A stretch of 32,000 bases of DNA. Origin: Desulfotalea psychrophila LSv54. GTDB lineage: Bacteria > Desulfobacterota > Desulfobulbia > Desulfobulbales > Desulfocapsaceae. A model generated the notes under the pieces. The model saw only the letters and a program-made list of their open reading frames with translations. It did not search any database and was not told where the DNA came from. A program made the translations under genes and the position numbers. The stretch covers positions 2,400,001-2,432,000 of the forward strand of contig NC_006138.1 in the NCBI RefSeq assembly GCF_000025945.1, given 5' to 3'. This document shows positions 5,976-24,652 of this stretch, piece after piece (positions within the stretch are counted from its first letter, which is position 1; each line of letters begins with the position of its first letter).

Positions 5976-6104
5976 GAACCAGAGCATCGTGCGCAGTACA
6001 ATTGTTTCGCCATCGGTGCGGGTGACCGTCTGCATGGGGGCAAGAACTACGTGATCGACCCCGGTTTGATCGGGGCGATACTCACGTCGCAAGGGCTGGC
6101 ATGA
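5976..6104 (+). pseudogene. Orphan remnant of a third adhesin C-terminus (...GGKNYVIDPGLIGAILTSQGLA*). It has no ATG and no upstream coding continuity.
   Basis: The frame is open only from 5976 (stop at 5973-5975) to TGA at 6102-6104. The last seven codons, ctc acg tcg caa ggg ctg gca, encode LTSQGLA. This equals the last seven residues of 6773-14665 but uses different synonymous codons. Confidence 0.6.
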
Positions 6105-9700: not shown

Positions 9701-12700
9701 TGGAGTTACAGTGCCACCATCGCCGATGGCACCACCTACCAGCTTAAGGTCAAAGAGACCGATGCCGCCGGCAATGAAAGTGCGGCCACCACCGACTTTG
9801 TCGTTGCAGGAGATACCTTCGCCCCGACAGCCAGTATTGATTTGGCCCTCCATACCGTTCAACTGGAAGCAATTGACAATCTCAGGGGCGATGACCACGC
9901 CCCTCAGGTCAGCGCTGTCGGTAACGCCGGTGAGTTTGTCGTCACCTGGCAGGGGCAGGATAGCGGGGGTGACACCAGCATTTTTGTGCAGAAATTCAAT
10001 GTCGATGGCAAGACCACGGGAGCCCCGGCACAACTGGAGGCGATTGGCAAGGTCGGGGGCGATGACGAATGCCCTCAAGTCAGCGCCGTCGGTAGCGCCG
10101 GTGAGTTTGTGGTGACCTGGTATGGGCAGGATAGCGCGGATGACTCCAGCATTTTTGTGCAGAAATTCAATGCCGATGGTACGACCCTGGGTAATGCCTC
10201 GGTACAACTGGAAGCGATTGGCAATGCCCGTGGCGCTGACTACTTCCCTCAAGTCAGCGCCGTCGGAAGCGCCGGTGAGTTTGTGGTGACCTGGTATGGG
10301 CAGGATAGTGATAGCGCGAATGACTTCAGTATTTTTGTGCAGAAATTCAATGCCGATGGCACGACCCTAGGTAATGCCCCGGTACAACTGGAAGCGATTG
10401 GCAAGGCCAGAGGCGCTGACGGCTACCCTCAAATCAGCGCCGTCGGTAGCGCCGGTGACTTTGTGGTGACCTGGCAGGGGCAGGATAGCGCGAATGACCC
10501 CAGCATTTTTGTCCAGAAGTTCAATGCCGATGGCAGGACCACGGGAGACCCGGTACAGTTGGAGGCGATTGGCAATGCCCGTGGCGCTGACTACTTCCCT
10601 CAAGTCAGCGCCGTCGGTAACGCCGGTGAGTTTGTAGTCACCTGGATGGGGAAGGATAGCGCGAATGACTTCAGTATTTTTGTGCAGAAATTCAATGCCG
10701 ATGGCACGACCCTGGGTAATGCCCCGGTACAACTGGAAGCGATTGGCAAGGCCAGAGGCGCTGACCACTACCCTCAAATCAGCGCCGTCGGTAGCGCCGG
10801 TGACTTTGTGGTGACCTGGCAGGGGAGTGATAGCGAGGGTGACTTCAGCATTTTTGTGCAGAAATTCAATGCTGGTGGCACGACCCTGAATAATGACCCG
10901 GTACAACTGGAAGCGATTGGCAAGGTCGGGGGCACGGACAGCAACCCTCAAATCAGCGCCGTCGGTAGCGACGGAGAGTTTGTGGTGACCTGGTATGGGC
11001 AGGATAGCGCGAATGACTTCAGTATTTTTGTGCAGAAATTCAATGCCGATGGCAGGACCACGGGAGACCCGGTACAACTGGAGGCGATTGGTAATCCCAG
11101 CGGCGCTGACTACATTCCTCAAATCAGCACCGTCGGTAGCGCCGGTGACTTTGTGGTGACCTGGCAGGGGAGTGATAGCGAGGGTGACGACAGCGTTTTT
11201 GTGCAGAAATTCAATGCCGATGGCACCCTGAATATGCCGCCCATCTTTACTGCGAGTGATAGCGTCCCAGTACAAAGCAGCGAAGTCGGCACGGCTTATC
11301 TGGTAAGTACCGATGTCACGGTCACCGACGTGGCCAGCATTACGGCTGCGGCAGATGGTCAGTGGAATCAGGTGGCAATTACAACGGCAGGCACCAACAC
11401 CGGTATGGCCACCACTGGGCTGGCTGATGGGATCTATTTTGTTTACAGTGCCGATGCCGCAGGCAACCTGTCGGCTGCGGCAGGCACCACAGTGACCATC
11501 GACAACACCGCCCCGACCGTATTGATCACCGACAATACCGACGGTACCGCCAACGGTCCTGTTACCTACACCTTTACCTTCAGCGAGGCGGTGACAGGTT
11601 TTACCGTTGAAGATGTGGTCGTGACCGGCGGAATTAAGGGCGCACTCACCGGCAGCGGCACGACCTATAATCTGGTCGTGACCCCTGACAGCTCGAGCAC
11701 CGCCGATATCGTCGTGAATGTGGCGGCCGATGTCGCGCAGGATGTGGCCGGTAATAACAATACCATTGCCGCCGAAAGTACCCAGTCCGTCGATACCGTC
11801 ATCCCAACCGTAGCTATCACCGACAATACCGACGGTACCACCACTGGGGATGTAACCTACACCTTTACCTTCAGCGAGGCGGTGACCGGTTTTGCCGCCA
11901 CTGATGTGGTCGTGACCGGCGGAACCAAGGGTGCACTCACCGGCAGCGGCACGACCTATAATCTGGTCGTGACCCCTGACAGCTCGAGTACCACCGATAT
12001 CGTCGTGAATGTGGCGGCGGATGTCGCGCAGGATGTGGCCGGCAATAACAATACCATTGCCGCCAAAAGTACCCAGTCCGTTGATACCGTCATCCCGACA
12101 GCCAGTATTGATTTGGTGACCCTCCCTGCCGTACAACTGGAAGCGATTGGCAAGGACGACGGCGGTGACTACTCCCCTCAAATAAGCGCCGTCGGTAGCG
12201 ACGGTGACTTTGTGGTCACTTGGGAAGGGCAGGAGAGTGCGGGGGAAGACAGCATTTTTGTCCAGAAATTCAATGCCGATGGCGTGACCACGGGAGTCCC
12301 GGTACAACTGGAGGCGATTGGCAATGCCACGGGCGATGACAGATGCCCTCAGGTCAGCGCCGTCGGCAGCGCCGGTGAGTTTGTGGTGACCTGGTATGGG
12401 CGGGATAGTGATAGCCCGGGTGACAATAGCATTTTTGTGCAGAAGTTCACTGCCAATGGCGTGATCACGGGAGACCCAGTACAACTGGAGGCGATTGGCA
12501 AAAAAGAGGGCAGTGACAACGCCCCTCAAGTCAGCGCCGTCGGTAGCGACGGTGACTTTGTGGTGACTTGGTTTGGGCAGGATAGCGCGAATAACATGAG
12601 CATTTTTGTGCAGAAATTCAATGCTGATGGCACGACCCCATCTCCGGTACAGCTGGAAGCGATTGGCAATACTACGGGCACGGACAACAACCCTCAAGTT

Positions 12701-14665
12701 AGCGCCATCGGTAGCGAAGGTGAGTTTGTGGTCACCTGGCAGGGGGATGATAGTGATAGCCCGAGTGACAAGAGCATTTTTGTCCAGAAATTCAATAATA
12801 AAGGCGCGATCCTGGGAGACCCGGTACAACTGGAAGCCATTGGCAATACTAAGGGCACGGACAGCCGCCCTCAAGTCAGCGCCGTCGGTAGCGACGGTGA
12901 CTTTGTGGTGACTTGGGATGGGCAGGATAGTGATAGCGCGAATGACAACAGCATTTTTGTGCAGAAATTCAATGCCGATGGTACGACCTCAACTCCGGTA
13001 CAACTGGAAGCCATTGGCAATAGTAAGGGCACGGACAGCCGCCCTCAAGTCAGCGCCGTCGGTAGCGACGGTGACTTTGTGGTGACTTGGGATGGGCAGG
13101 ATAGTAATAGCCCGACTGGCTACAGCATTTTTGTCCAGAAATTCAATGTCGATGGCGTGACCACGGGAATCCCGGTACAACTGGAAGCAATTGACATGGA
13201 CGGGGGCATTGATCTCTCTCCTCAAATTAGCGCCGTCGGTAGCGCCGGAGAGTTTGTCGTGACCTGGTCTGGGCAGGATAGCGCGACTGACTTCAGCATT
13301 TTTGTGCAGAAATTCAATGCCGATGGCGTGATCCTGGGAGACCCAGTACAACTGGAAGCGATTGGCAAGGACGGGGGCAAGGACAACAATCCTCAAATCA
13401 GCGCCGTCGGTAGCGCCGGAGAGTTTGTGGTGACCTGGCAGGGGCAGGATAGTGAGGGTGACAACAGCATTTTTGTGCAGAAGTTCAATGCCGATGGCAC
13501 CCTGAATATGCCGGCCATCTTTACTGCGAGTGATAGCGTCCTAGTACAGAGCAGCGAGGTCGGCACGGCTTATCTGGTAAGTACCGATGTCACGGTCACC
13601 GACGTGGCCAGCATTACGACTGCGACAGATGGTCAGTGGAATCAGGTGGCAATTACAACGGCAGACACCAACACCAATATGGCCACCACCGGGCTGGCTG
13701 ATGGGAGCTATTCTGTTTACAGTGTCGATGCCGCAGGCAACCTGTCGGCTGCGGCAGGCACCACAGTGACCATCGACAACACGGCCCCGACGCTACAGTC
13801 CAGCACCCCGACCGATGAGGCTACCGCTATCGCCCTGGACAGCAATATCGGCCTGACCTTCACTGAAAACGTTTCGCTGGGTAGCGGCGGCACCATCACC
13901 ATCACCGACGGCAACGACAGTCACGTGATCGACGTAAGCAACCCCTTAGGGCAACTCTCGATCACCGACAAGGTCCTCACCATCAACCCAACCGGAGACC
14001 TGGCCAATAATAGCGCCACCTACCATGTCGAAATCGGCGCAGGCGCTATCACCGACACGGCCGGTAACAACTATGCCGGAATAGCGGATTTAACTATCCT
14101 TAATTTTGACACCGAGGCAGCCGCGACTCCTGTCAACACTAATATTGTTGTATTCGATCTGGTTCATGGGGTGAGTTCTAGCCACGAGGGCGGGTACGGT
14201 GCGGCTGCGCGCGAGTTCAGCGACGACCCATCCGCCGCGTACACGATATACATTATGGTCGATTCCGATTCATCGGTATTAAACACCACCCCAACAGACG
14301 CCGCCGCAGGCGCTACCTGGGGCCAGTGGAACAATGCCGGGGCGTTAGGTGAAAATGACAGGATCGTGTTCGTCGGAGATGGAGCCCCTATCCAGCGGGC
14401 TGTCGGTAAGGTGGCAGATTCTGTGGCGGAGTATTCATATGCGATTCAGTTACAGGTGGATTGTGGGATTATGATGAGAGTAGCAAATGACGGGGAGGTG
14501 AAACGGTATACTGAAACGCATTTCACGATGTCGCATGGTATGTTGCCGGACTTTGATTTGTGGGGCGGTAAAGTTGGGAATATGGAGTTGGACGGTGGAT
14601 GCAAGGCAGATCTATACGCCGACGCTATTCCCGTGGGTATATTGACCAGCCAGGGGCTCGCATAA
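6773..14665 (+). CDS. Giant (2630-aa) T1SS-type adhesin-like protein. Modules in order: BapA/LapA-like N-terminal prefix domain, a Gly/Ala-rich hydrophobic segment, a cadherin-like domain, 4x84-aa Ig-like repeats, then two blocks of 8 'FVVTW...FVQKFNADG' repeats that each carry a duplicated tail domain and are separated by a pair of 97-aa Ig-like domains, then an SbsA/Big_5-like domain and a 172-aa C-terminal domain ending TSQGLA.
   Basis: The ORF is uninterrupted. The N-terminus reads ...GATYTLLD...PDNLIIKRSGDNLDIEI...IAQIEDFYG. The cadherin-like segment reads APTITSGDSATAIDENS...SYSFTVVATDAAGNSSEQTVSLAITDLDE. The C-terminus VVFDLVHGVSS...GILTSQGLA is paralogous to that of 1-5709. Confidence 0.9.
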   Translation: MKRLILIEVLAGGEVVEHSLQSASFKAQAGATYTLLDQDHSIPDNLIIKRSGDNLDIEIDEEPIAQIEDFYGQDLGAIYSVDGSLTPAEGMAITGTETTTAGPTDEIVWQASEGAESISPWVWAGGLLGAGGIAMAAGGGSSDGSSLADKGSASHDVTVRAVAGPFLATSHALVEFYDDGGNQLGTGKFETNGQVKLSIGDYKGAILVKVIDNNEGAGDYLDEASGLSLSLGAPLRAMGYADGNGDVYISVTPLTELAARQAGITGNEVNEADLAVNDQIAELFAVEDILAPVVTVVDDAYDSSDEINETAEHYGEILAQLSGADKTSGGLTDTLDKLKDAITVQDGSLALSQEGVELLADGVDAFEDGINAGKADLGSSLIQPPLIEAARDGINAAEKDAGVVVKISGVEVGDRITLHWGEEILNILPTDIDDKGMGTVMVPASKIGDAGDGSIAVQYQINDGNKSPAVIIEVDTSAPTITSGDSATAIDENSVADQVIYTATSTDTTDTATGATVYSLKAGSDAGLTIDGSTGEVKLVISPNFEAKPSYSFTVVATDAAGNSSEQTVSLAITDLDEIAPTAPTLGTSNGTELSGVAEAGSSVTVYAADGTTVLGTTMADASSGAYTFSPNPLTDGKTGSVVTTDTAGNVSAVMEITAVDGTAPGAPTLGTSNGTELSGVAEAGSSVTVYAADGTTVLATTTADASSGAYSFSPNPLTDGKTGSVVTTDTAGNVSAVTEITAVDATAPGAPTLGISNGTELSGVAEAGSSVTVYAADGTTVLKTTTADASSGAYTFSPNPLTDGKTGSVVTTDSAGNVSAVTEITAVDATASGAPTLGTSNGTELSGVAEAGSSVTVYAADGTTVLGTTTADATSGAYSFSPNPLTDGKTGSVVTTDSAGNVSAVTEITAVDATAPTAKFGTATDNIGSVTGNLSSGDTTDDTVLALSGSCEAGSTIKVYSGTTELGDATVSGSSWSYSATIADGTTYQLKVKETDAAGNESAATTDFVVAGDTFAPTASIDLALHTVQLEAIDNLRGDDHAPQVSAVGNAGEFVVTWQGQDSGGDTSIFVQKFNVDGKTTGAPAQLEAIGKVGGDDECPQVSAVGSAGEFVVTWYGQDSADDSSIFVQKFNADGTTLGNASVQLEAIGNARGADYFPQVSAVGSAGEFVVTWYGQDSDSANDFSIFVQKFNADGTTLGNAPVQLEAIGKARGADGYPQISAVGSAGDFVVTWQGQDSANDPSIFVQKFNADGRTTGDPVQLEAIGNARGADYFPQVSAVGNAGEFVVTWMGKDSANDFSIFVQKFNADGTTLGNAPVQLEAIGKARGADHYPQISAVGSAGDFVVTWQGSDSEGDFSIFVQKFNAGGTTLNNDPVQLEAIGKVGGTDSNPQISAVGSDGEFVVTWYGQDSANDFSIFVQKFNADGRTTGDPVQLEAIGNPSGADYIPQISTVGSAGDFVVTWQGSDSEGDDSVFVQKFNADGTLNMPPIFTASDSVPVQSSEVGTAYLVSTDVTVTDVASITAAADGQWNQVAITTAGTNTGMATTGLADGIYFVYSADAAGNLSAAAGTTVTIDNTAPTVLITDNTDGTANGPVTYTFTFSEAVTGFTVEDVVVTGGIKGALTGSGTTYNLVVTPDSSSTADIVVNVAADVAQDVAGNNNTIAAESTQSVDTVIPTVAITDNTDGTTTGDVTYTFTFSEAVTGFAATDVVVTGGTKGALTGSGTTYNLVVTPDSSSTTDIVVNVAADVAQDVAGNNNTIAAKSTQSVDTVIPTASIDLVTLPAVQLEAIGKDDGGDYSPQISAVGSDGDFVVTWEGQESAGEDSIFVQKFNADGVTTGVPVQLEAIGNATGDDRCPQVSAVGSAGEFVVTWYGRDSDSPGDNSIFVQKFTANGVITGDPVQLEAIGKKEGSDNAPQVSAVGSDGDFVVTWFGQDSANNMSIFVQKFNADGTTPSPVQLEAIGNTTGTDNNPQVSAIGSEGEFVVTWQGDDSDSPSDKSIFVQKFNNKGAILGDPVQLEAIGNTKGTDSRPQVSAVGSDGDFVVTWDGQDSDSANDNSIFVQKFNADGTTSTPVQLEAIGNSKGTDSRPQVSAVGSDGDFVVTWDGQDSNSPTGYSIFVQKFNVDGVTTGIPVQLEAIDMDGGIDLSPQISAVGSAGEFVVTWSGQDSATDFSIFVQKFNADGVILGDPVQLEAIGKDGGKDNNPQISAVGSAGEFVVTWQGQDSEGDNSIFVQKFNADGTLNMPAIFTASDSVLVQSSEVGTAYLVSTDVTVTDVASITTATDGQWNQVAITTADTNTNMATTGLADGSYSVYSVDAAGNLSAAAGTTVTIDNTAPTLQSSTPTDEATAIALDSNIGLTFTENVSLGSGGTITITDGNDSHVIDVSNPLGQLSITDKVLTINPTGDLANNSATYHVEIGAGAITDTAGNNYAGIADLTILNFDTEAAATPVNTNIVVFDLVHGVSSSHEGGYGAAAREFSDDPSAAYTIYIMVDSDSSVLNTTPTDAAAGATWGQWNNAGALGENDRIVFVGDGAPIQRAVGKVADSVAEYSYAIQLQVDCGIMMRVANDGEVKRYTETHFTMSHGMLPDFDLWGGKVGNMELDGGCKADLYADAIPVGILTSQGLA
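8510..9517 (+). repeat. Four in-frame 252-bp (84-aa) Ig-like tandem repeats.
   Basis: Units start at 8510, 8762, 9014 and 9266. Each reads AP.APTLGTSNGTELSGVAEAGSSVTVYAADGTTVL.TT.ADA.SGAY.FSPNPLTDGKTGSVVTTD.AGNVSAV.EITAVD.T. Confidence 0.9.
9857..11242 (+). repeat. Block 1: eight 57-60-aa repeats with consensus VQLEAIG...G.D..PQ(V/I)SAVG.(A/D)G(E/D)FVVTW.G.DS...D.SIFVQKFNADG.
   Basis: I counted eight consecutive units in the translation. The family is recognisable by the FVVTW and FVQKFNADG strands. I cannot name a domain for it. Confidence 0.85.
11519..12100 (+). repeat. Two 291-bp (97-aa) Ig-like domains: ITDNTDGT..G.VTYTFTFSEAVTGF...DVVVTGG.KGALTGSGTTYNLVVTPDSSST.DIVVNVAADVAQDVAGNNNT.
   Basis: The units start at 11519 and 11810 and are near-identical at the nucleotide level. 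Confidence 0.85.
12131..13516 (+). repeat. Block 2: a second set of eight FVVTW/FVQKFNADG repeats, offset 2274 bp from block 1.
   Basis: I counted eight units. The last unit ends FVQKFNADGTLNMP(A/P), exactly as in block 1. Confidence 0.85.
13517..13792 (+). repeat. Second copy of a 92-aa tail domain (IFTASDSV.VQSSEVGTAYLVSTDVTVTDVASIT...VTIDNTAPT). The first copy is at 11243-11518.
   Basis: The nucleotide sequence is near-identical at an offset of 2274 bp. The same out-of-frame 60-aa ORF appears at 11313-11495 and again at 13587-13769 in the ORF track. Confidence 0.9.
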
Positions 14666-14940: not shown

Positions 14941-17610
14941 TTGAATTATATAGATATACTTCGTCAGCTCGCAGATCAACAGCAGTTCACCCTGCTCCAT
15001 CTCAACGCCCAGCGCTATCTGCAGGAATCGGCTGATGTGCAGGCCCTGCCCCTGCTGGCCCTGGCCCTGGCCCATCTGGGCGAGCGCAGTGAAGCCGAAG
15101 CCGTACTGGCCCAGATCGAGGCCTGTCTGGCCGACCTCGATCTGGATGCGCGGGTGGATCTGGCCGCCGTCTACTGCCTGTTGTGGCGCTCTGCTGAAGC
15201 CGTAGCCCTGCTCGAAGCGGCCCTGGCCATGAGCGACGATCATTCCCTGGCCCTGGCGCGTCTTGCCTGGTGCCGCATGCAGGAGGGTAACAGGGCTGAG
15301 GCCTGCATTCTCTACCGACGATCTGCTGAGCTAATGCCGGATCGCCTGCCGGTCTGGAGCGCCCTGGCCCGACTTTATCTGGAGGCAGGCGATTATCCGC
15401 CGGCCCAACAGGCCCTGGAGATGGCCATCGGCCGCTTCGAGCTGCTGGCTGCCAACCTGCCTGAGGTCGTCGCCGCGACCTTTATGGCCCAGTTTCGTGG
15501 GCTGCAGTTGGAGATTTGGCTGAGCACGGATGCCCTGGCCCAGGCCGATGCCTGGCTGGCCGAGCGTCGCCAGACCCTCCCGGAGGAGGAGTGGACGCAG
15601 CTGATTCTTGGCTATTCTACCCTGCTGGCAGGGCAAGAACGCCATGCCGAGGCGGAAGAGAGCCTGGGCAATGCCCTTAAACACTATCCGCAAAACCTTG
15701 CCCTGATCTCGCAGCTGGCAGAACTGACCCAGCTTCAGGGGCGCACCATACAGACGGTGCAGTTACTGCGCCGGGCAATTCGACTGGCCAAAGATCAGGA
15801 TAAACCGGAGGTGGGTCTGTGGGTGCGGCTCTCCGCTGCCTGCCTGCAGCAGATGGAGGATCAGGCAGGCAAGGCCGCAGAGAGGGCGGTGGAACTGGCC
15901 GAGGCGATGGTGGAGACGGAGGCAGTGCCGTTGCAAATGATCCGCCAGTTGCGCCTGCAGGCAAAAAATGCCCGGGCCCAGGTGGAAAGTCAGGCCCAGC
16001 ATTTCGATGAGGCCGAAACCCTGTTCCGGGAAATCCTCGAAGAGAACCCCTGGTTTGTGCCGGCCCTGCAGGGTTTGGGCCAGCAGCAGATGCAGCGCGG
16101 CAACCTCGACGAGGCGGTGGCGCTGTTCGAACGGATCAAAGAGATCGACCCGGCCAGGGGTTACTCAGCGCTGATTAATGCCCGTCGGTTCCCTGACGAT
16201 GACGACAGCCTAAGGCGAATGGAAAAGGTCGCCCGCCAGCCGAGCCTTGAGGGACCGGTCCGTTCCGGCCTGCTTCTGCAATTGGCCTCTGCCTGGGAAA
16301 AACGTAAAGAGTTCGACAGGGCCTTCGCTCTGGCGGTGGAGGCCAACGATTCGAGCAAAAAGCGGCTGCGCTACGACCCTAGAGCCCATCGCAATCAGTG
16401 TGCCCGCATTCGGGCAGGATTCAGCAGGTCACTCTATGAGCATCGGCCGGCCTCTGGCCTTGATTCCACCCTGCCGGTTTACGTTCTGGGGATGCCTCGT
16501 TCCGGCACCACCCTGGTTGAGCAGATTCTCGCCGGTCATAGCCAGATCTTTGGCGCAGGTGAACTCGGGGTGATCCCTCAGGTGGTGCAGGGCCTCAACC
16601 GCTGGGAACGACATGTCGGTTCCGGCCGCCACTATCCCGACGCGGTCGACGATCTCACCCCTCATGCCAGGGCTGGCATTGCCAACAATGTCCTCAAAGA
16701 GCTCCGGGAATATGCCCCCGAGGCAAGGCATGTGGTGGATAAACTGCCCCATAACTTTGAAAATATCGGCCTGATCAAGTTTCTCTTTCCGCAGGCCAAA
16801 ATCATCTCGGTGCGTCGCGACCCACGCGATATTGCCATCTCCAATTATTTTACCGACTATCAGGCCAAACACGGCGGCATGGGTTTTGCCTATGATCTGA
16901 CCAGCATCGGTGAGCAACTGGCCGATCATAACCTGCTCATGCATCATTGGCACCAGATCTTCCCCGGTGAAATTCTGGAGATCAATTACGAGGATGTGGT
17001 CGATGATCTCGAAGGCAGCGCTCGGAGGATGCTTGACTATATTGGGGTCGAGTGGGAGCCTTCGGTACTCAAATTCAACGAGCTGGAGCGTACCGTCAAA
17101 ACCGCCAGCGTCTGGCAGGTGCGGCAACCGATCTACAAAACCTCCAAGGCCAGGTGGATGCGTTATCAGGACCATCTGGCGCCGCTGATTCAGGGAACCA
17201 ATGCCAAAATCTGTCCCGATCCGATAGGGGATATGATTACCCTGCCGTTGCCGGGATTCTTAACCGATGGTGTTGAACTGTACCGCCAGGACGATCTCGA
17301 TGGCGCTGAGTTGAGTTTTAAGAAGATGTTACACCACAACCCCGAACACGCTGCCTGCAACTATATGGTGGGGCTGGTCTACTGTCGCAAGGGACATGTC
17401 GGAGAGGCGAGTCCCCTCCTGGAAAAGGCCCTGGAAAAGGCCCCCTGGCATAGAGAGTGGCGGGAAAACCTCGAAAGGGCTTACAGGCTTGTTGGCGATC
17501 AGGATAAACTTTTAGAATTACAAAATCGTTACCTTAAAAAAGATAAGACAGGGGATTGGTCTGACGACGAGACCCTGGCAGATTTCGAAATGTTGTTTAA
17601 GCAAAATTAA
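14941..17610 (+). CDS. TPR-repeat-flanked sulfotransferase. It has about 500 aa of N-terminal TPR-like helices, a PAPS-dependent sulfotransferase core and about 110 aa of C-terminal TPR. It appears cytoplasmic.
   Basis: The core carries VYVLGMPRSGTTLVEQILAGH (5'-PSB-type P-loop, PRSGTT at 16495-16512) and ISVRRDPRDIAIS (3'-PB-type motif, 16813-16830). Helical Ala/Leu-rich TPR-like repeats flank it on both sides. I see no hydrophobic N-terminus. The start is TTG at 14941, the first start codon after the in-frame stop at 14899-14901. An in-frame GTG at 15037 preceded by AGGAA is an alternative. Confidence 0.85.
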   Translation: MNYIDILRQLADQQQFTLLHLNAQRYLQESADVQALPLLALALAHLGERSEAEAVLAQIEACLADLDLDARVDLAAVYCLLWRSAEAVALLEAALAMSDDHSLALARLAWCRMQEGNRAEACILYRRSAELMPDRLPVWSALARLYLEAGDYPPAQQALEMAIGRFELLAANLPEVVAATFMAQFRGLQLEIWLSTDALAQADAWLAERRQTLPEEEWTQLILGYSTLLAGQERHAEAEESLGNALKHYPQNLALISQLAELTQLQGRTIQTVQLLRRAIRLAKDQDKPEVGLWVRLSAACLQQMEDQAGKAAERAVELAEAMVETEAVPLQMIRQLRLQAKNARAQVESQAQHFDEAETLFREILEENPWFVPALQGLGQQQMQRGNLDEAVALFERIKEIDPARGYSALINARRFPDDDDSLRRMEKVARQPSLEGPVRSGLLLQLASAWEKRKEFDRAFALAVEANDSSKKRLRYDPRAHRNQCARIRAGFSRSLYEHRPASGLDSTLPVYVLGMPRSGTTLVEQILAGHSQIFGAGELGVIPQVVQGLNRWERHVGSGRHYPDAVDDLTPHARAGIANNVLKELREYAPEARHVVDKLPHNFENIGLIKFLFPQAKIISVRRDPRDIAISNYFTDYQAKHGGMGFAYDLTSIGEQLADHNLLMHHWHQIFPGEILEINYEDVVDDLEGSARRMLDYIGVEWEPSVLKFNELERTVKTASVWQVRQPIYKTSKARWMRYQDHLAPLIQGTNAKICPDPIGDMITLPLPGFLTDGVELYRQDDLDGAELSFKKMLHHNPEHAACNYMVGLVYCRKGHVGEASPLLEKALEKAPWHREWRENLERAYRLVGDQDKLLELQNRYLKKDKTGDWSDDETLADFEMLFKQN

Positions 17611-17630
17611 TTTTAACGTAGTGAATAGAT

Positions 17631-18971
17631 ATGAATCTTCAGCGCCGGCCTCATTTTTGTAGGGCCATTTTGTTATTTTCTCTCTGCACCTCCATCCTGC
17701 TCTCGCCACTGTTTTTTAGGCAGCGCTGTTATGCAGACACACAGACCCTGGCGGAAAGCGATGCCCTGACAGTTGGAGCGAAGGAGCAAGCGGTGGTGGG
17801 TTTAGCTGCTGCCCTACAGGCCACCATGAGTTACAATCCGGCAATAAAGGGGAAACGCGCCGAGCTCAACTCGTATGAGGCTAGAATCGACGGTGCCAAG
17901 GCGGGGCGATATCCATCTCTTTCTGCTCAGGCCAATAATGTTAATAATTACCTGGGCCAGTATGAACAGGGCATAGTGAGTATCCAGCAACCTCTGTGGG
18001 CTTTTGGGAAAATAGATAACGAGATTGACCGGGCAGAGGCCAACTATCACTCTGAGCAACTTGGACTATTACAGGTACAGCGGCAACTCATTGAAAATAC
18101 AGCTGCGGCCTACGCCCGTATAGAGGGAATCGAGAAGCGCGCCACAGTGGCTCGGCTGAATATCAGAGAGCACGAAAAACTTTATAATCGAATTAAACGA
18201 CGCGAAGAAGGCCACATGGCTTCCGAGGCTGATATGCGCCTGGCATACTCTCGTCTTATTCAGGCCAAGACCCAATTGATGCGTATTGGCGGTGAAAGAG
18301 ATATCGCCATTTCTAATCTACGCTTATTGACTCAAGCCGATGTTGCCGTTGATGCCGTTGTTGATAAAGATCTGACAGAATTACCGATGATAGCCGAGGT
18401 TGAAGATCGGGCCATAAAAAACAGTGCTGATGTCAGATACAAGAAGATGCGTTTAGACGTGGTTGCCTATGATGTCAAAAGAGAGAAAATCGCCTCGCTA
18501 CCAACCCTGTCTTGCCGGGTTGACTACGAATTTCTCGATAAACCGGAAAGCGGCGATAGAACCAGTTATGGCCTGGTACTCGAAGGCAATTTAGAAGGTA
18601 TGGGCTTTACCACTATTAGCCGGGTAAAAGGTGCCACATCCCGCGAAATAGCTGCACGGGAAGATGTGGACCTTACCACCAATGATGTGCTTAATCGGGT
18701 CCGTTCTCTGATGCTCGATCGCGCCATGCAGAGCTCTCTGAAAAATGCTCAAAGGGAATCGGTGCAGATTGTTGAATCAACCATGGCCTCCTTTATGCGG
18801 CAGTATGAATCGGGGCGAAAATCGTGGATTGATGTACTCAATACCCAACGTGAACTCACTGAATTGCGCTATCAGTTGGCCCAAATAGAAAATGATTGGC
18901 TCACCTCATCCCTACGCGTTTTGGCCGTGACGGGTGAGCTTGATCAACTGGCAGGAATTGAATCTCTATGA
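17631..18971 (+). CDS. TolC-family outer-membrane factor of the type I secretion system.
   Basis: The product is 446 aa with a signal-like N-terminus (ILLFSLCTSILLSPLFF). Its size and two-repeat coiled-coil-rich composition are typical of the family. The stop overlaps the ABC gene start (ATGA at 18968-18971). The OMP-ABC-MFP gene order matches lapEBC-type loci. Confidence 0.8.
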   Translation: MNLQRRPHFCRAILLFSLCTSILLSPLFFRQRCYADTQTLAESDALTVGAKEQAVVGLAAALQATMSYNPAIKGKRAELNSYEARIDGAKAGRYPSLSAQANNVNNYLGQYEQGIVSIQQPLWAFGKIDNEIDRAEANYHSEQLGLLQVQRQLIENTAAAYARIEGIEKRATVARLNIREHEKLYNRIKRREEGHMASEADMRLAYSRLIQAKTQLMRIGGERDIAISNLRLLTQADVAVDAVVDKDLTELPMIAEVEDRAIKNSADVRYKKMRLDVVAYDVKREKIASLPTLSCRVDYEFLDKPESGDRTSYGLVLEGNLEGMGFTTISRVKGATSREIAAREDVDLTTNDVLNRVRSLMLDRAMQSSLKNAQRESVQIVESTMASFMRQYESGRKSWIDVLNTQRELTELRYQLAQIENDWLTSSLRVLAVTGELDQLAGIESL

Positions 18972-21241
18972 TTAAAAATATACTAAAAACAGATAGTCCA
19001 GCTCGGCAGAAAGCATCTGAGAGGGGATGCGCTGAGATTGATCCCAGTTTTTTACAGCAAGATCTACCTGCAGGGGTCTTAAAACAACTTCTTGATCGCC
19101 TGGATATACCGGTGCAGACAGGTGCCCTTACTCATGCCTGTGAACAGGCACAAAAAGAGATGACCGAGGCATCGCCCAGCCAGCGGATTAACTTCATTTT
19201 TCATGCCTTACAGATCAGAGGCGTGCAGGTGGCTCAGCTACGCTGGACCCGTTTTGATCAGCGACGTCTCCCTGCGATGCTCTGCCATGGTGGCAGTTGG
19301 AAGTTAATCGAGCGCGGCCAGAGCGGCCAGTTAATTCTGACGGATGAAATGGGCGAGACATGCCAGTGCTGCGAAGCGGATTTGAGTGATGTCTTTGTCC
19401 TGTGGTTACATGTTCAGCAGAAGAGAGAGACTGGCCCCTCCTTAAAGGGCAACCTTGCTGCCCGTCTGCTCCTACGGGAGATGTTTAAAGATCGTCGCTG
19501 GCTTGTCAACGTCACTATTTCCACCATAATCATTAATGTTTTGGCGATTACCACCTCACTCTTTGCCCTGCAGGTCTATGATCGGGTAGTACCGACCCTG
19601 GCCTACGCGACCCTCTATACCCTGGTGGCTGGCATGGCGATTATGGTCAGTCTGGACTGGCTCCTCAAAACCCTGCGCGCCCGCATCCTCGACAGTGTCT
19701 CCTGTGCCGTCGACAGGAGTGTATCACAACAGGTATTTGACCACGTAATGCGTCTACAGCTCGATATTCGACCACGCAGCCTCGGAACTCTGGCGGCACA
19801 GGTCGGTGGACTTGACTCGGTTAAACAGTTTTTTACCTCCGGGGTGATTTTTGCCCTGATCGACATGCCCTTTGCCCTGATGTTTATTGCCTTTATCGCC
19901 ATTATTGGTGGTCCCATTGGCTGGGTATACCTGCTCTTGCTTCCAGTGGCGGCAACATTGGGTTGGATAACCCAAAAGCGCCTGCGCCGTTTAATGCGCG
20001 AGCAGATGATACGCTCCAACGAACGTCAGGGACTACTGGTGGATGCCATCCAAGGCAGTGAATCAATTCGTGCCAACAACGCCACCTGGCGTTTTTCTGA
20101 ACAGTGGCGTGAAATAACCACCTCTATCTCTCGTTACAATATACAGCAAAAGGCGATCAGCAATCTGGCGACGGTCTCAACGGGTAGCCTGTCAACCATA
20201 GCCTATGTTACGGCAATTGTTGTTGGGGTCGGCCAGATCGAGGCTGGTAACCTGACCATGGGCGCACTCATTGCCTGTAGTATTCTCGGTGGCCGGGTAA
20301 TTGCCCCCGTTGCCCAAAGTGTGCAGTATCTTGCCCAGTGGCAGAATATTGCCCAGGCACTGCAGATGGTCAATCAGGTACTGATCCTTAAGACAGATCG
20401 TCGTCCGGACCAGGAGCTGTTGATGCCCGACGAACGGCCTGCAACAGTTGAGCTGGAAGGGGTCCGTTTCTGCTATCCCGAGTCCCCCATACAGCAACTG
20501 AATATCGCTAAACTCAGCTTTAAGGCCGGTGACCGGGTGGCCCTGATCGGTAACGTTGGTTCCGGTAAATCGACACTGCTTAAGGTATTGGCCGGTCTCT
20601 ATGCACCAGCCGAAGGACGTGTCCGCTTAGGCAATGCCGATCTTTGGGAGATGGATCCTCATCTGGTAGCAGAACATATCGGCTACCTGCCACAGAGTGT
20701 CCATCTATTCAAGGGCACCCTACGCAGCAACCTGACACTCTCCGGTGCCGTCAGTGATTCCCACCTATTGCATATCGCCCATGAACTGGGGATTGATAGC
20801 ATTGCAGCCGAAAATCCCCGCAGCATGGAGCTACCCATCAGCGAAGGGGGCGAGGGGCTGTCCGGTGGTCAACGGCAGTTGGTTGGTCTGGCCCGGGTCT
20901 TCCTGGCCCAACCCACAATATGGTTACTGGATGAACCAACGGCTTCATTGGACAGCAACAGTGAACAGCAGGTGCTGGCAGCTATTGCCTCTCATATTAA
21001 GGCCGATGATATTCTCATACTATCAACCCATCGACCGGCACTTATCACCCAGCTGACGAACCGGGTTGTGGTGATGCAGCGCGGTGAGATAAGCGCCGAT
21101 GGCCCACCAGAAGTGGTACTACCACGACTGATGGGAAAAAGGACGAACCAGGCCCATGGTGCCAGAGAAGTACAGGTGCGTATGCCGATGCCTGCTGCCG
21201 TATATTCCGGAAACAACAGGGGGGCATATAATGTTATCTAA
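18968..21241 (+). CDS. Type I secretion ABC permease/ATPase (HlyB/LssB-like) with an N-terminal C39-like domain that shows no recognisable catalytic Cys motif.
   Basis: Motifs seen are Walker A GNVGSGKST (20549-20575), the ABC signature LSGGQRQ and Walker B IWLLDEPTASLD, with a six-helix TMD region. The first ~150 aa resemble a peptidase-like fold, but I saw no C39 catalytic Cys motif of the kind found in bacteriocin/RaxB exporters. Confidence 0.93.
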   Translation: MIKNILKTDSPARQKASERGCAEIDPSFLQQDLPAGVLKQLLDRLDIPVQTGALTHACEQAQKEMTEASPSQRINFIFHALQIRGVQVAQLRWTRFDQRRLPAMLCHGGSWKLIERGQSGQLILTDEMGETCQCCEADLSDVFVLWLHVQQKRETGPSLKGNLAARLLLREMFKDRRWLVNVTISTIIINVLAITTSLFALQVYDRVVPTLAYATLYTLVAGMAIMVSLDWLLKTLRARILDSVSCAVDRSVSQQVFDHVMRLQLDIRPRSLGTLAAQVGGLDSVKQFFTSGVIFALIDMPFALMFIAFIAIIGGPIGWVYLLLLPVAATLGWITQKRLRRLMREQMIRSNERQGLLVDAIQGSESIRANNATWRFSEQWREITTSISRYNIQQKAISNLATVSTGSLSTIAYVTAIVVGVGQIEAGNLTMGALIACSILGGRVIAPVAQSVQYLAQWQNIAQALQMVNQVLILKTDRRPDQELLMPDERPATVELEGVRFCYPESPIQQLNIAKLSFKAGDRVALIGNVGSGKSTLLKVLAGLYAPAEGRVRLGNADLWEMDPHLVAEHIGYLPQSVHLFKGTLRSNLTLSGAVSDSHLLHIAHELGIDSIAAENPRSMELPISEGGEGLSGGQRQLVGLARVFLAQPTIWLLDEPTASLDSNSEQQVLAAIASHIKADDILILSTHRPALITQLTNRVVVMQRGEISADGPPEVVLPRLMGKRTNQAHGAREVQVRMPMPAAVYSGNNRGAYNVI

Positions 21242-22445
21242 CAATCCTTTAGCGACAAATGAAATAGACAACGACAGGGCAATAGCTCGCCTTGAGAGTT
21301 ACCATCGCGGTCGTTACTCACTGGTCTTATGGCTATTGCTCATCGCCTTTGTTATCGTCATCCTCTGGGCATCTGTCTTTCAGTTGAACCAGGTTGCACG
21401 TGCCAGGGGCGAGGTGATTGCCAGTAGTCGGGTGCAGATTATTCAGTCGGTGGATGGTGGCGTGCTGGCGGAGTTGAACGTCAGGGAGGGCGACCAGGTA
21501 AAACCGGGGCAGGTACTGGCACGTCTCGACCAGACTCGATCTGGAGCTTCGGTGAAGGAGATCGAAGCGCGCCTGTCTGCCCTGAAGGCCAAGGCAACTC
21601 GTTTGCGGGCGGAGGTGACCGAGGTGGATAAACTTATCTTTCCTGAAGAGTTACTTAAACATCCTGAAACCGTGGCAGTGGAACGCGCTCTGTTCCAACA
21701 ACGACGCACCGGACTAAAAGAGGAGCTCAAAACCCTGAAGGTGGCGGTCAAGCTGGCCCAGGAAGAGGTGACCCTGCTGACCAATCTGGAGCGATCCGGC
21801 GATGTGAATCGTTCCGAGGTAATTCGTACCAAACGGGCACTCAATGATGCTAAATCCAAGTTAATCGTGCGCAAAAACCGTCATTTTGAAGAGGCGAGTA
21901 CCGAGCTGATTAAAGCTGAAGATGGTATTGCCCAGAATGAACAGATCTTCGCCCAACGAAAACAACAGCTGGAGGACAGTGTTTTTACCGCCCTGGTTCC
22001 CGGTATCGTTAAAAATGTCCGGGTGACGACCGTGGGCGGGGTACTGCGTGCCGGTGAGGAGTTGATGCAGATCATCCCCGTCGGTGATGATCTTATTATT
22101 GAAGCCAAGGTAAGTCCCACCGATATTGCCCTGGTACGTCCCGGTCTGGTAGCGACCATTCGTTTTGACCCCTTTGACTATACCATCTTTGGCGGAGTGA
22201 CCGGTAAGGTTGTCTACGTCAGTGCCGATACCCTTAAAGAGAAAACTGCCCGGGGCGAAGATATTTACTACCGTGTCCATGTCATTACAGAGATGACGCC
22301 CGTTACCACCACAACTGGCAAGGTACTCGATATCCTACCGGGGATGACCGCTCAGCTCGATATTCGTACCGGTGAGCGTAGTGTCCTTGAATATATGTTG
22401 AAACCATTGCGTAAGACTGTCAGTAACGCCTTCGGTGAACGTTAA
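21231..22445 (+). CDS. HlyD-family periplasmic adaptor (membrane fusion protein) of the T1SS.
   Basis: The product has one N-terminal TM segment (LVLWLLLIAFVIVILWASVF), a lipoyl-like motif GGVLAELNVREGDQVKPGQVLARLD, a long coiled coil and a C-terminal beta-barrel. I chose ATG 21231 (preceded by aacagggggg) over the track's 21156, which lies deep inside the ABC gene. Confidence 0.9.
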   Translation: MLSNNPLATNEIDNDRAIARLESYHRGRYSLVLWLLLIAFVIVILWASVFQLNQVARARGEVIASSRVQIIQSVDGGVLAELNVREGDQVKPGQVLARLDQTRSGASVKEIEARLSALKAKATRLRAEVTEVDKLIFPEELLKHPETVAVERALFQQRRTGLKEELKTLKVAVKLAQEEVTLLTNLERSGDVNRSEVIRTKRALNDAKSKLIVRKNRHFEEASTELIKAEDGIAQNEQIFAQRKQQLEDSVFTALVPGIVKNVRVTTVGGVLRAGEELMQIIPVGDDLIIEAKVSPTDIALVRPGLVATIRFDPFDYTIFGGVTGKVVYVSADTLKEKTARGEDIYYRVHVITEMTPVTTTTGKVLDILPGMTAQLDIRTGERSVLEYMLKPLRKTVSNAFGER

Positions 22446-22448
22446 GAG

Positions 22449-24158
22449 ATGCCTTTTCAAAAAAACATAAATTGCAAATATCCAGAGACTTTGCTGGTCG
22501 ATCCTGAGCAGATAGAGGGGTTAAAGGCAGAGGCCCTGGATCTTATCAGCCTGACTCTTTCTGTCGAGCAAATTTGCGATCTTGAGCTATTGTTAAATCG
22601 GGGTTTCTATCCTCTTGTTGCTTATATGGACCAGGCCTCTTATCTCTCTGTGCTAAAAAACATGAGACTAACGGATGGAACTCTTTGGCCCACCCCCATT
22701 TCTCTGGCTGTCTCGAAAAACAGGGTCGCTGGCTTAACAATAGGGCAGCGCCTAGCACTTAATGATCAGGAAGGTTTTCTTATCGCAATCCTGACCATTA
22801 GTGACATTTGGCAAGCAGATACAAGGCTGGAGGCCAAGGCCGTTTATGGTACCACTGATTCGGCCCGGCATCCTGGAGTACGAAAATTGTACGATTGCTC
22901 CGGCGATTACTATCTTGCCGGTTCTCTTGAGGGTATTTCTTTACCTGTTCATTATGATTTCCAATCTCTACGTCTAAGTCCTGCCGAGACTGTTCAACGT
23001 TTCATGACGAAGGGCTGGCAAAGGGTCGTTGGTTTTCAGACCGATGAGTATTTGCACTATGGTCACCATAAAATGATTATGGCCGCAGCGCAGGAGATAG
23101 GCGCAGCCGTTTTTATCCAAGCCCAAATTAACTGTCCCGGGGAAATCACCCATTACACCCATGTACGCTGTCATCAGGCCTTCACCAAGCTCTTTCCCAT
23201 AAATATGGCGGGACTTGGCTTGTTTGCTCTTCCGGCAAAAAAGACAGGACCGAGGGAGGCTCTTTTACAGGCGATAATCAAGAAAAATTTTGGTTGCACT
23301 CATTTCATGGTTGCCCCTGACCATGCAGACCCCTTTGCCGTCATGACTGATGAAAAGGCACTGTTTTATCCTCGGGGTGAGGCGCAAAAGCTCGTCGCTT
23401 ATTATGAAAAAGAGACCGAGATAACAATGATTCCTCAACGAGGGGTAGGATACTGCAAAAAGGATAAAAAATATATTTTTCAGGGGGCCAAAGGGGCTGA
23501 GAACAGTTCATTAATCGATTCGAAGGGATTAATGGGTCGATTAAAAAGAGAAGAAGAAATCCCTCCCTGGTTCACCTGTCCGAAGATTGTCCAAGAAATT
23601 CGCCATGATTTCCTCCCAAGGTCTGGGCAGGGCTTTACCATTTTCATGACAGGGCTTTCCGGAGCAGGGAAATCAACAATTGCCAAGGTATTACAGGTAA
23701 AGTTTGCGGAGATGCGTGAGCGGCCTGTAACACTGCTGGATGGTGATATTGTGCGACTCAATCTCTCCTCTGAACTTTCATTTTCCCAAAAAGACAGAAA
23801 TCTCAATGTCACCCGTATTGGTTTTGTCGCAGGTGAGATAACTAAAAATGGTGGTATAGCCCTATGTGCGCCCATCGCCCCCTATGAAGAGTCCCGCCAA
23901 GTAAACAGACGCTTAATTTCAAATTATGGAGGCTATATCGAAGTATATGTAGCAACACCCCTTCAGGTTTGTGAGCAGCGTGACAGCAAGGGACTCTATG
24001 CCAAGGCCCGATCCGGCCGGATCAAGAATGTAACAGGGATAACAGATCCGTATATTCCCCCGACGAATCCTGAAATTACCATCGATACCACAAACATTAA
24101 CCCCATGGATGCAGCAGAGAAGATACTGCTATATCTGAAGGGGGAAGGATACCTGTAA
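22449..24158 (+). CDS. Fusion of an ATP-sulfurylase-like N-terminal domain with an APS kinase (CysC-type) C-terminal domain. It is PAPS-synthase-like.
   Basis: The kinase half carries FMTGLSGAGKST (P-loop 23652-23678), LLDGDIVR, FSQKDRNLNVTRIGFVA and CEQRDSKGLYAKARSG.IKNVTGI. The sulfurylase half carries GPREALLQAIIKKNFGCTHFMV, but its active-site motifs are non-canonical (see findings). Confidence 0.9.
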   Translation: MPFQKNINCKYPETLLVDPEQIEGLKAEALDLISLTLSVEQICDLELLLNRGFYPLVAYMDQASYLSVLKNMRLTDGTLWPTPISLAVSKNRVAGLTIGQRLALNDQEGFLIAILTISDIWQADTRLEAKAVYGTTDSARHPGVRKLYDCSGDYYLAGSLEGISLPVHYDFQSLRLSPAETVQRFMTKGWQRVVGFQTDEYLHYGHHKMIMAAAQEIGAAVFIQAQINCPGEITHYTHVRCHQAFTKLFPINMAGLGLFALPAKKTGPREALLQAIIKKNFGCTHFMVAPDHADPFAVMTDEKALFYPRGEAQKLVAYYEKETEITMIPQRGVGYCKKDKKYIFQGAKGAENSSLIDSKGLMGRLKREEEIPPWFTCPKIVQEIRHDFLPRSGQGFTIFMTGLSGAGKSTIAKVLQVKFAEMRERPVTLLDGDIVRLNLSSELSFSQKDRNLNVTRIGFVAGEITKNGGIALCAPIAPYEESRQVNRRLISNYGGYIEVYVATPLQVCEQRDSKGLYAKARSGRIKNVTGITDPYIPPTNPEITIDTTNINPMDAAEKILLYLKGEGYL

Positions 24159-24652
24159 ATGTCACCTGCCAAAGAGAAGTGCCGTCTCATGTTTAATCCT
24201 GCCAACGTGGTCTGCCCCCATCGAACAGTCTCTTCATCGGGTTTATTTTATGTGCTGTTTTTTCTCGAATGCATCAGAAAAAATGGCATGGGTTATTCCC
24301 TGGTAGTACTTTTTTGCCTTTTGGCAATTACCGCTCCCTGTCGGACTGCCTAGCAGGTTCGATCTCTGTCTGGATTGGTGTAGCGATAATTTTTTTCCTA
24401 TCAGAACTTTATCAGCAACTACATCCTCTCTATTTGTGTAATCCCCTTGGCGCATCTATTTTCTCCAGTGTTTGGCTGGTTTTTTAATCTTTCCCGCTGT
24501 CTTGGATAGTTAAGTAATATCAATTAAATAAAAACATGTGCCTCTTGGTAAATGCTTTTTCCTCGCAAGCGAATTACCCCTTTGCCTTGACCTTCTCTCT
24601 TTTTTCCTATGTTATTATGCATGAGGCAATAAAATCTTATGGAGGTAGAGGA

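Follow-up and report, generated by a model that had tools for sequence, protein, structure and literature searches.

A candidate sulfation-coupled type I secretion module for giant surface proteins in Desulfotalea psychrophila and other bacteria

Introduction

To our knowledge, the sulfation of RaxX by RaxST in Xanthomonas is the single well-studied case of protein sulfation in bacteria. RaxST is a stand-alone catalytic domain, and RaxB is a peptidase-containing transporter. The Rax system comprises the sulfotransferase RaxST, a type I secretion system (T1SS) formed by RaxA, RaxB and RaxC, the peptide RaxX, and RaxP and RaxQ for synthesis of 3'-phosphoadenosine 5'-phosphosulfate (PAPS) (PMC4646787, PMC4216712). 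The present work concerns a locus of Desulfotalea psychrophila LSv54, contained within a 32,000-nucleotide stretch of its genome (NC_006138.1, positions 2,400,001 to 2,432,000; hereafter the window, to which coordinates refer unless another locus is named). Here, two giant cargo genes lie upstream of an operon of five tightly packed forward-strand genes (14941-24158), encoding a sulfotransferase flanked by tetratricopeptide repeats (TPRs), a TolC-family channel, an ATP-binding cassette (ABC) permease/ATPase, an HlyD-family adaptor, and a fusion of an ATP-sulfurylase-like domain to an adenosine 5'-phosphosulfate (APS) kinase. An initial annotation, made from the sequence alone, had proposed this locus as a candidate sulfation-coupled T1SS. 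Profile hidden Markov models (HMMs), the ranking of the enzyme against proteins of solved structure, and the conserved linkage of the genes now support that proposal, and from them we infer sulfation of the cargo itself.

The logic of this module is Rax-like, in that sulfotransferase, T1SS, cargo and PAPS supply occur together; it is conserved, widespread and undescribed, and is distinguished by a new cargo domain. In both systems, a cytoplasmic PAPS-dependent sulfotransferase is encoded with a T1SS and its cargo, PAPS genes are linked, and the chemistry is probably that of the tyrosylprotein sulfotransferases (TPSTs). However, the window enzyme is an 889-residue protein with two TPR arms, rather than a stand-alone domain, and its ABC transporter lacks the C39 peptidase of RaxB. 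Furthermore, cargos of the window type span hundreds to thousands of residues and carry a C-terminal domain and tail, whereas RaxX is a small ribosomally synthesised and post-translationally modified peptide with a leader, and the module occurs in many classes of bacteria, rather than in one genus. The initial annotation had already set the locus apart from Rax by the missing C39 signature and the large cargos with C-terminal signals, both of which held, as no C39 match was found and the cargos are 2630 and at least 1901 residues long.

Iyer et al. (2010; PMC2938197) predicted bacterial operons in which hydroxylases, sulfotransferases and PAPS synthetases act on collagen-like or tail-collar proteins. 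In these operons sulfation was predicted for the co-encoded secreted proteins, some being accompanied by their own PAPS synthetase (PMC2938197). However, they are centred on dioxygenases that require 2-oxoglutarate and iron, and have other substrates, with no TPR-sulfotransferase, T1SS or immunoglobulin (Ig)-repeat adhesin. Beyond these predictions and Rax, no description of the present module was found in the searchable literature. The cargos themselves resemble LapA/BapA-type adhesins with LssB/LapB-like exporters, with which they share giant Ig-like repeats, an N-terminal prefix, a C-terminal signal, and adjoining genes for ABC, membrane fusion and outer-membrane proteins. Yet the window cargos differ in lacking repeats-in-toxin (RTX) nonapeptides, and in having an unmodelled C-terminal domain and a specific tail. 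No cargo match to the NCBIfam retention-module, BapA-prefix or T1SS C-terminal target-domain models was found, and no LapG/LapD-like family was conserved among the 47 loci clustered below.

Results

A TPR-armed sulfotransferase that looks active and protein-directed

The first gene of the operon (14941..17610, forward strand) encodes the 889-residue TPR-sulfotransferase-TPR protein, which was characterised by open reading frame (ORF) calling, profiles, AlphaFold2 (AF2) modelling and Foldseek, and is predicted to be cytoplasmic. Its TTG start at 14941 is supported by homologues aligning from residue 1, with the consensus MxYxxILRxL, and its sequence is 100% identical to the protein labelled 177439.DP2106. 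The match to PF13469 (Sulfotransfer_3) covers residues 512-707 (16474..17061), with TPRs on both sides, at 160.6 bits against a cut-off of 27 (E 8.6e-47). The protein is thereby divided into an N-terminal TPR superhelix (residues ~3-471), a core (~480-760) and a C-terminal TPR arm (~773-870), with the AF2 model (predicted local distance difference test score, pLDDT, 85) placing approximately 13 helical hairpins N-terminal of the core and five C-terminal of it. The enzyme had been described as free of membrane and signal sequences; consistent with this, the maximum 19-residue hydropathy was 1.33, indicating no transmembrane segment, and no signal-peptide-like hydrophobic stretch was apparent by eye in the first 40 residues, for which no predictor was run.

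The motifs GMPRSGTTL and RRDPRD, on which the sulfotransferase assignment was originally based, are both present, and align with the PRSGTTL and RDGR motifs of TPST2. More broadly, the 5'-phosphosulfate-binding loop (5'-PSB), the 3'-phosphate-binding motif (3'-PB), and a Glu, a Lys and a Ser align with TPST2, TPST1 and 8w5z. Relative to TPST2, PRSGTTL falls on PRSGTTL, G-E-L on E-E-T, DKLP on NKDP, RRDPRD...S on RDGR...S, and TAS.WQV.QP on RSTDQVIKP. The aligned Glu, Lys and Ser of TPST2 are catalytic residues, the Glu lying in the E-E-T segment, and E541 is a candidate catalytic base of the window enzyme. All of these aligned positions are invariant across 39 orthologues, among them the PSB loop, the 3'-PB, and residues E541, K601 and S634. 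The orthologues are approximately 890 residues long, retain the same three-part architecture, and are 47-73% identical overall, with the core being 74-84% identical across phyla (mean 79%), and the N-terminal and C-terminal TPR arms averaging 48% and 57%, respectively.

The affinity of the enzyme was judged by ranking a profile of the core against all PDB sequences. The best matches were protein-tyrosine sulfotransferases, whether the search used the single sequence (E 1e-10) or the profile (TPST1/2, E 1e-13). Polyketide sulfotransferases came next (CurM-ST, 2e-10; OLS-ST, 5e-8), cytosolic SULTs appeared only above 1e-3, and no carbohydrate sulfotransferase was found at E <= 1. Foldseek also matched the core to TPST2 (TM-score 0.62-0.65), with an identity of only about 20%. 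Hence, among solved structures, the enzyme does not nest with carbohydrate or lipid sulfotransferases, as TPST1/2 rank first by profile and TPST2 by fold. These closest solved structures share the 5'-PSB PRSGTTL, the 3'-PB RD.R...S, and the aligned Glu, Lys and Ser, but they are lumenal, type II membrane proteins of the Golgi, of approximately 370 residues and without TPRs, whereas the window enzyme is predicted to be soluble and cytoplasmic, with TPR arms.

The arms themselves matched TPR superhelices in Foldseek, with those of O-GlcNAc transferase (OGT) and SPINDLY among the highest-ranking. OGT and SPINDLY modify proteins, and the lumen of the TPR superhelix holds the protein substrate. Like these enzymes, the putative protein sulfotransferase joins a long TPR superhelix to a catalytic domain for protein hydroxyl side chains, but the catalytic domain of OGT and SPINDLY is a GT41 glycosyltransferase, rather than a P-loop sulfotransferase, making this an analogy of design and not a catalytic homology. 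With its invariant motifs, conserved core, TPSTs as nearest relatives and OGT/SPINDLY-like arms, the enzyme looks both active and protein-directed.

The module is conserved across bacterial classes

To map the module, the window proteins, together with an HMM built on the cargo C-terminus, were placed on all ORFs of 42 loci found with the sulfotransferase as query, each with 10-kb flanks, and of two complete-genome loci. Gammaproteobacterial carriers of the enzyme include Oceanisphaera, Neptunomonas, Motiliproteus, Vibrio, Psychromonas, Colwellia, Marinomonas, Marinobacterium, Paraglaciecola, Pseudomonas benzenivorans, Aeromonas fluvialis and Agarivorans. Orthologues of the enzyme also occur in Betaproteobacteria (Nitrosomonas, Ideonella), Zetaproteobacteria (Ghiorsea), Magnetococcales, and Desulfobacterota (Desulfatiglans, Desulfosarcina, Desulforhopalus and a Desulfotalea metagenome-assembled genome, MAG).

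The ABC and HlyD genes lie directly 3' of the sulfotransferase in 24 of the approximately 30 loci with at least 6 kb of downstream sequence, with TolC intervening between the enzyme and ABC genes in most cases, and follow an 8-kb insertion in one further locus. The full order of cargo, sulfotransferase, TolC, ABC and HlyD is kept in approximately 25 of the 30 loci with enough flank. A same-strand gene with the cargo domain was present in 32/44 loci, and nearly all the cargo-less exceptions reflect early contig ends or a cargo-like N-terminus running off the contig. All-versus-all clustering of the ORFs from 47 loci recovered the sulfotransferase in 45, the cargo in 36, ABC in 31, TolC in 30, HlyD in 29 and CysC in seven, whereas no other family occurred in more than three of these loci, and genes for glycosyltransferases, polysaccharides or lipids did not recur. 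The reverse search, starting from the cargo-domain profile, placed the domain gene directly 5' of a TPR-sulfotransferase and T1SS in three of four long-contig contexts. The fourth consisted of orphan minimal cargos, and the same sample also yielded a sulfotransferase-T1SS locus (L039). The co-occurrence of these genes, which the initial annotation had put forward from one locus, is therefore maintained across classes.

Giant cargos share an undescribed C-terminal module

Cargo B (6773..14665, forward strand) is a 2630-residue protein comprising a short N-terminal prefix, Ig-like repeats of the Big_6, Big_12, Big_13, cadherin and Big_5 types, a C-terminal domain and a TSQGLA tail. The prefix is common to cargos of other loci and to minimal proteins of 328 residues. 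Cargo A (4..5709, forward strand), the N-terminus of which lies beyond the window edge, is at least 1901 residues long, contains delta-60/DUF5122, Big_13 and Big_5 domains, and ends ...IFTSQGLA*. Both giants thus bear the TSQGLA tail originally attributed to them, and neither contains a single RTX GGxGxD (GG.G.D) motif. Residues ~17-500 and ~890-940 of cargo A, within 4-3000 of the forward strand, consist of near-identical tandem repeats of ~119 residues (...TLDTTLPAAPTLAELTSTDLGDTLMNAAESLSTDFQATLPTTGSLAVAGDSIELLLDGSSFATAKTVILSADDITNGSVNFTVT.ADLGSDGAKALTTQLTD.AGNVGIISNAMDF...), suggesting recent expansion and a risk of assembly collapse.

Alignment of approximately 30 cargo C-termini defined a body of ~135 residues, with the pattern VVFDL-x2-G-x-SS-x-HS-x-R-x-F ... 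Y-x-I-Y-x-VD ... W-x-GA-x-NLG-x-DD-x-I-x-LVG ... LW-x-G, followed by a tail of ~25 residues ending ...P-x-G-I-L-T-S-Q-G-L-A/V. Examples of invariant body positions are V, F, G, F, Y and L; the Ser pair, I, the second Y, W and D are among the near-invariant ones. In cargo B, this module (14132..14662, forward strand; HMM positions 2-160, E 1.6e-46) has a body that reads VVFDL.G.SS.H...R.F...Y.IY.VD...W...LG.ND...VG, and its tail ends in ...P.GILTSQGLA. In cargo A, the domain is shortened (5350..5706, forward strand; E 4.5e-14), as its middle part is absent and only HMM positions 2-83 and 142-160 are matched, the latter including the tail. No Pfam or NCBIfam model matched the module even at E <= 10, and Foldseek identified no PDB fold match for its AF2 model (best E 1.3), leading to the assignment of the domain to a known family being rejected. 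The AF2 model of the cargo B module had a pLDDT of 67 overall, with a beta-rich body (~70-85) and a disordered tail (below 55). Two to three copies of the body per protein were found in loci L007, L030 and L038, including internal copies without a tail, and hence the body is read as a folded module itself, rather than merely part of a secretion signal.

The profile of the cargo module returned 2980 matches, a count inflated by Ig repeats, since the profile took in the preceding Big_5-like region; many representatives nevertheless bear the module at their extreme C-terminus. A word-indexed search with the cargo-domain profile yielded only short proteins, reflecting a limit of the search and not biology. 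The minimal cargos, a family of ~330 residues, consist of the N-terminal prefix, a linker, and the C-terminal domain with its tail. In Motiliproteus (L044), two orphan 328-residue representatives with TSQGLA tails (10001-10987 and 12310-13296) lie on a 405-kb contig, distant from any sulfotransferase or T1SS, and would be handy small substrates for experiments. Within the window, the spacer between cargos A and B contains a 42-codon ORF (5976..6104, forward strand), preceded by in-frame stops and ending ...GLIGAILTSQGLA*, with ILTSQGLA at its terminus. As this TSQGLA end is written in codons unlike those at the 3' ends of cargos A and B, the ORF looks like the relic of a decayed third cargo gene.

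The tail tracks the exporter and the domain tracks the enzyme

The three exporter components are encoded by the second to fourth genes of the operon, all on the forward strand. The 446-residue TolC-family outer-membrane channel (17631..18971) matched the Pfam OEP profile above threshold (E 1.6e-37) and TIGR01844 at 133 bits, below its cut-off of 225, and inspection of its translation shows a hydrophobic, signal-peptide-like stretch at the N-terminus. The 757-residue ABC permease/ATPase (18968..21241) is of the LssB type, its best model being TIGR03375 (profile positions 8-694), at 614 bits and thus just under the cut-off of 693. The HlyD-family periplasmic adaptor (21231..22445) matched TIGR01843 at 316 bits, above the cut-off of 209. 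The ABC protein bears an N-terminal appendix of ~170 residues, the interpretation of which as a C39 or C39-like domain was rejected, as no profile or PDB sequence match was found. Specifically, Peptidase_C39 gave no match at E <= 10, either to the N-terminal 178 residues or to the whole protein, in line with the original reading of this exporter.

Variation between loci separates the roles of tail and body. TSQGL[AV] tails are restricted to loci whose ABC protein shares at least 57% identity with that of the window; where this identity is ~49%, no tail of this type is present, and loci with short, appendix-less ABC proteins of ~27% identity, in Marinomonas, have cargos ending in ...SQPMS, ...TQPMF or other sequences. 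In contrast, the cargo body and the sulfotransferase are kept with every class of tail and exporter. The enzyme still adjoins its cargo where the T1SS lies elsewhere (L018, L029, L036), and where the T1SS is of the different, appendix-less type, with an ABC ~27% identical (Marinomonas L019, L024 and L026). As the tail co-varies with exporter type, it is probably an exporter-specific secretion signal, whereas the body, which persists with the enzyme across exporter types, is read as the feature travelling with the enzyme. Hence the pairing of the sulfotransferase with TSQGLA-tailed giants, as first proposed, stands in that both giants are so tailed, but the tail follows the exporter, and the constant partner of the sulfotransferase is the ~135-residue domain. 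The idea that the TPR arms read TSQGLA as PEX5 reads the peroxisomal targeting signal PTS1 was unsupported, because the arms do not co-vary with the tail, which follows the ABC type: arm-to-core identity ratios were alike for TSQGL and other tails (0.61 versus 0.58 for the N-terminal arm, and 0.73 versus 0.72 for the C-terminal arm).

The operon and its probable supply of PAPS

The five-gene layout and each junction were found as initially described, the ORFs occupying the expected coordinates and the junctions being read from the sequence; likewise, Pfam and NCBIfam profiles returned the expected family for all five proteins. A 20-nt gap separates the sulfotransferase from TolC (17610/17631), TolC and ABC share an ATGA overlap (18968-18971), the ABC gene, with its stop at 21239-21241, overlaps by 11 nt the HlyD gene, whose ATG is at 21231, and 3 nt lie between the HlyD stop at 22445 and the next ATG at 22449. 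A longer HlyD ORF would begin at 21156, but the start at 21231 is favoured because homologues are 402-409 residues long. No convincing terminator was found inside the operon, where the number of terminator-like sites was below the shuffled expectation, and one weak terminator-like site lies 3' of the last gene (24465-24479).

The last gene (22449..24158, forward strand) encodes a PUA-like domain and an ATP-sulfurylase-like domain with degenerate motifs, followed in the same protein by an APS kinase that is intact. It exceeds the cut-off of NF004040, the model for bifunctional Sat/CysC proteins (821 versus 669 bits), and can be aligned over its whole length with fungal ATP sulfurylase and with 3CR8, a two-domain APS kinase from Thiobacillus denitrificans (E 2.5e-118). 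However, the sulfurylase motifs are degenerate, with QTDEY, HYGH and APDHAD replacing the QTRNP, HRAH and GRDHAG of 1I2D, such that QTRNPMHRAH has become QTDEYLHYGH and GRDHAG has become APDHAD, with only HxxH kept. The APS-kinase motifs are intact: GLSGAGKS(T) at residue 402, LDGD at 430 and IAPY at 476. 3CR8 lacks sulfurylase activity. It shares the fusion of an ATP-sulfurylase-like domain to an intact APS kinase, the identical kinase motifs and degenerate sulfurylase motifs, and differs in its own substitutions, which are QARQP and HRAQ. Because the sulfurylase motifs are lost, and by analogy with 3CR8, the last gene is probably an APS kinase only, and the NCBIfam name 'bifunctional' probably over-annotates it. 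Such a gene would fit the metabolism of a sulfate reducer, in which APS is already being made. The earlier description of a PAPS-synthase-like gene holds for the Sat/CysC fusion, which matches NF004040, but the gene is an optional accessory of the module and in the window probably acts only as an APS kinase. A dedicated APS kinase was present in eight loci, in three arrangements: as a fusion in the window and in the Desulfotalea MAG (L016); as a stand-alone gene after HlyD in Neptunomonas, three Marinomonas loci and P. benzenivorans; and directly after the sulfotransferase in Marinobacterium.

Base composition provides a history for this arrangement. GC content at third codon positions (GC3) is foreign-like in cargo B (0.62) and the sulfotransferase (0.68), but native-like in the Sat-like::CysC gene (0.45), with the next three genes (24536-27842) at 0.41-0.47. 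The window sulfotransferase, ABC and HlyD are nearest to gammaproteobacterial versions (68-73% identity), rather than to those of the Desulfotalea MAG (48-57%). This mosaic GC3 and gammaproteobacterial affinity suggest that the cargo-enzyme-exporter block was laterally acquired, and then gained a local PAPS supply; such a gain would argue for turnover of PAPS by the enzyme.

Discussion

The best explanation of this module is that it is a self-contained, horizontally mobile unit that makes and exports giant surface proteins in sulfated form. Judged from sequence and predicted structure, PAPS-dependent sulfation of unfolded cargo in the cytoplasm, before type I export, has a probability of roughly 0.6. 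The wider proposition, that a TPST-like, TPR-armed cytoplasmic enzyme sulfates giant T1SS adhesins in a widespread pathway, and recognises them via the ~135-residue domain, is more tentative, falling a little short of an even chance. In the proposed sequence of events, Ig-repeat adhesin-like cargos would present at least one copy of this domain near their C-terminus, followed by the flexible ~25-residue tail as the putative secretion signal for the cognate LssB-type ABC, HlyD and TolC proteins. The 889-residue enzyme would engage the cargo while it is still unfolded in the cytoplasm, its TPR superhelices perhaps serving as substrate-holding arms by analogy with OGT. Sulfate would then be moved from PAPS to a hydroxyl side chain, most likely by TPST-like chemistry, with the invariant Y-x-I-Y Tyr, the Ser pair within G-x-S-S-x-H-S, and Tyr residues of the repeats as candidate acceptors, none of which is singled out computationally. 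The PAPS would come from the last gene, as a probable APS kinase using the APS of dissimilatory sulfate activation, and the modified cargo would exit through the T1SS in one step, C-terminus first.

Several observations weigh against this account. The invariant Tyr of Y-x-I-Y lies in a beta-strand of the AF2 model, and could therefore be structural only, and it is not preceded by the acidic residue at -1 that is typical of TPST and RaxST sites. The tail Tyr, ~17 residues from the C-terminus, is an unlikely sulfation site, as Phe, His, Ile or Ala replaces it in ~40% of cargos. Most loci have no dedicated PAPS gene, and one with full flanks (L031) encodes the enzyme and T1SS with no detectable cargo within 19 kb. 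Finally, CurM-type polyketide sulfotransferases are nearly as close to the enzyme as TPSTs (2e-10 versus 1e-13), and therefore sequence affinity alone is no proof of a protein acceptor. CurM-ST, a Sulfotransfer_3 relative, has an acyl intermediate as its substrate, and marine Vibrio and Cobetia are known to have sulfated capsular polysaccharides. The acceptor may hence be a surface glycan, lipopolysaccharide or exopolysaccharide, a lipid or a small molecule, with the T1SS linkage being regulatory or functional, for example through a sulfated ligand or anchor for the adhesin. We consider this unlikely, as the 47 loci contain no conserved glycosyltransferase, polysaccharide-export or lipid gene, and carbohydrate sulfotransferases were absent from the PDB matches up to an E value of 1. 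Moreover, the cargo gene still adjoins that of the enzyme in loci where the T1SS is remote or belongs to another type, and TPR arms as long as these (~470 and ~100 residues) typify enzymes that bind proteins.

Two further explanations are less likely still. The protein could mainly be a secretion chaperone or gatekeeper that holds the unfolded cargo or docks it at the ABC protein, with sulfation limited to a single regulatory site, or to the enzyme or transporter itself, rather than modifying the adhesin in bulk and altering its properties. T1SS cargos need to stay unfolded, a conserved domain beside the secretion signal would be first into the channel, and the TPR segments weakly resemble class II chaperones of type III secretion systems (LcrH/SycD, SctY), at scores far below the NCBIfam cut-offs. 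However, this is improbable for a protein in which the core is the most conserved part (79% versus means of 48-57% for the arms), every catalytic motif is invariant, and the arms do not co-vary with tail or exporter type, and repeated recruitment of APS kinases points to real turnover of PAPS. Alternatively, the linkage might be a by-product of common descent or of co-transfer on genomic islands, without functional coupling, as the gammaproteobacterial affinity and mosaic GC3 do make the module look horizontally transferred. Yet the gene order persists in at least five classes despite wholly different flanking genes, exporters have been swapped for another type with the enzyme-cargo pair retained, junctions overlap or are very short, and APS kinase has been gained in several arrangements, leaving hitch-hiking very improbable.

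Should sulfation of the cargos before export prove correct, protein sulfation would be common on the surface adhesins of marine, sediment and freshwater Proteobacteria and Desulfobacterota, and these cargos would be the first sulfated bacterial surface megaproteins. A pre-export modification step would be added to the one-step type I pathway, the T1SS cargo signals would form a new class, and the recognition domain would likewise be new. The enzymes would be soluble bacterial TPST-like proteins with built-in substrate arms, useful for enzymology and for the production of sulfated proteins, and likely prokaryotic relatives of the eukaryotic protein-tyrosine sulfotransferases. Sulfation could also give marine and sediment bacteria a polyanionic surface coat, akin to that of glycosaminoglycans. 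These propositions are testable in cultured carriers, including Pseudomonas benzenivorans (CP073346.1, with the locus at about 4.03-4.05 Mb), Agarivorans (CP194039.2), Marinomonas (M. arctica 328), Colwellia (C. demingiae ACAM 459) and D. psychrophila LSv54.

Insertions and neighbouring genes

In an Oceanospirillum MAG (L014, 12738-20743), the sulfotransferase and TolC genes are separated by five inserted ones, which encode a cyanophycin-synthetase-like protein (ATP-grasp and Mur ligase), two more ATP-grasp proteins, a 155-residue product with no match in Pfam, and a cytochrome P450; this insertion may supply a second set of peptide-modifying functions, or may be unrelated. In Agarivorans (L048), a reverse-transcriptase (RVT_1) gene lies between the cargo and the sulfotransferase (8884-9939, reverse strand), and may represent insertion of a group II intron or retron in the operon.

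Downstream of the operon, the window encodes a triple-rhodanese sulfurtransferase-like protein (30082-31425, forward strand) and an amino-acid permease (28134-29900, forward strand) with a high GC3 of 0.67, for which no tie to the module was seen in other loci. Just 3' of the operon, an HD-GYP/HD_5 protein (25217-26047, forward strand) is a possible cyclic di-GMP phosphodiesterase. HD-GYP-like genes of 38-42% identity also lie within 10 kb of the sulfotransferase in L002 (18839-19444, reverse strand) and L041 (8794-10368, forward strand), which may be coincidence, or may reflect a cyclic di-GMP regulatory link as in Lap-type adhesin systems.

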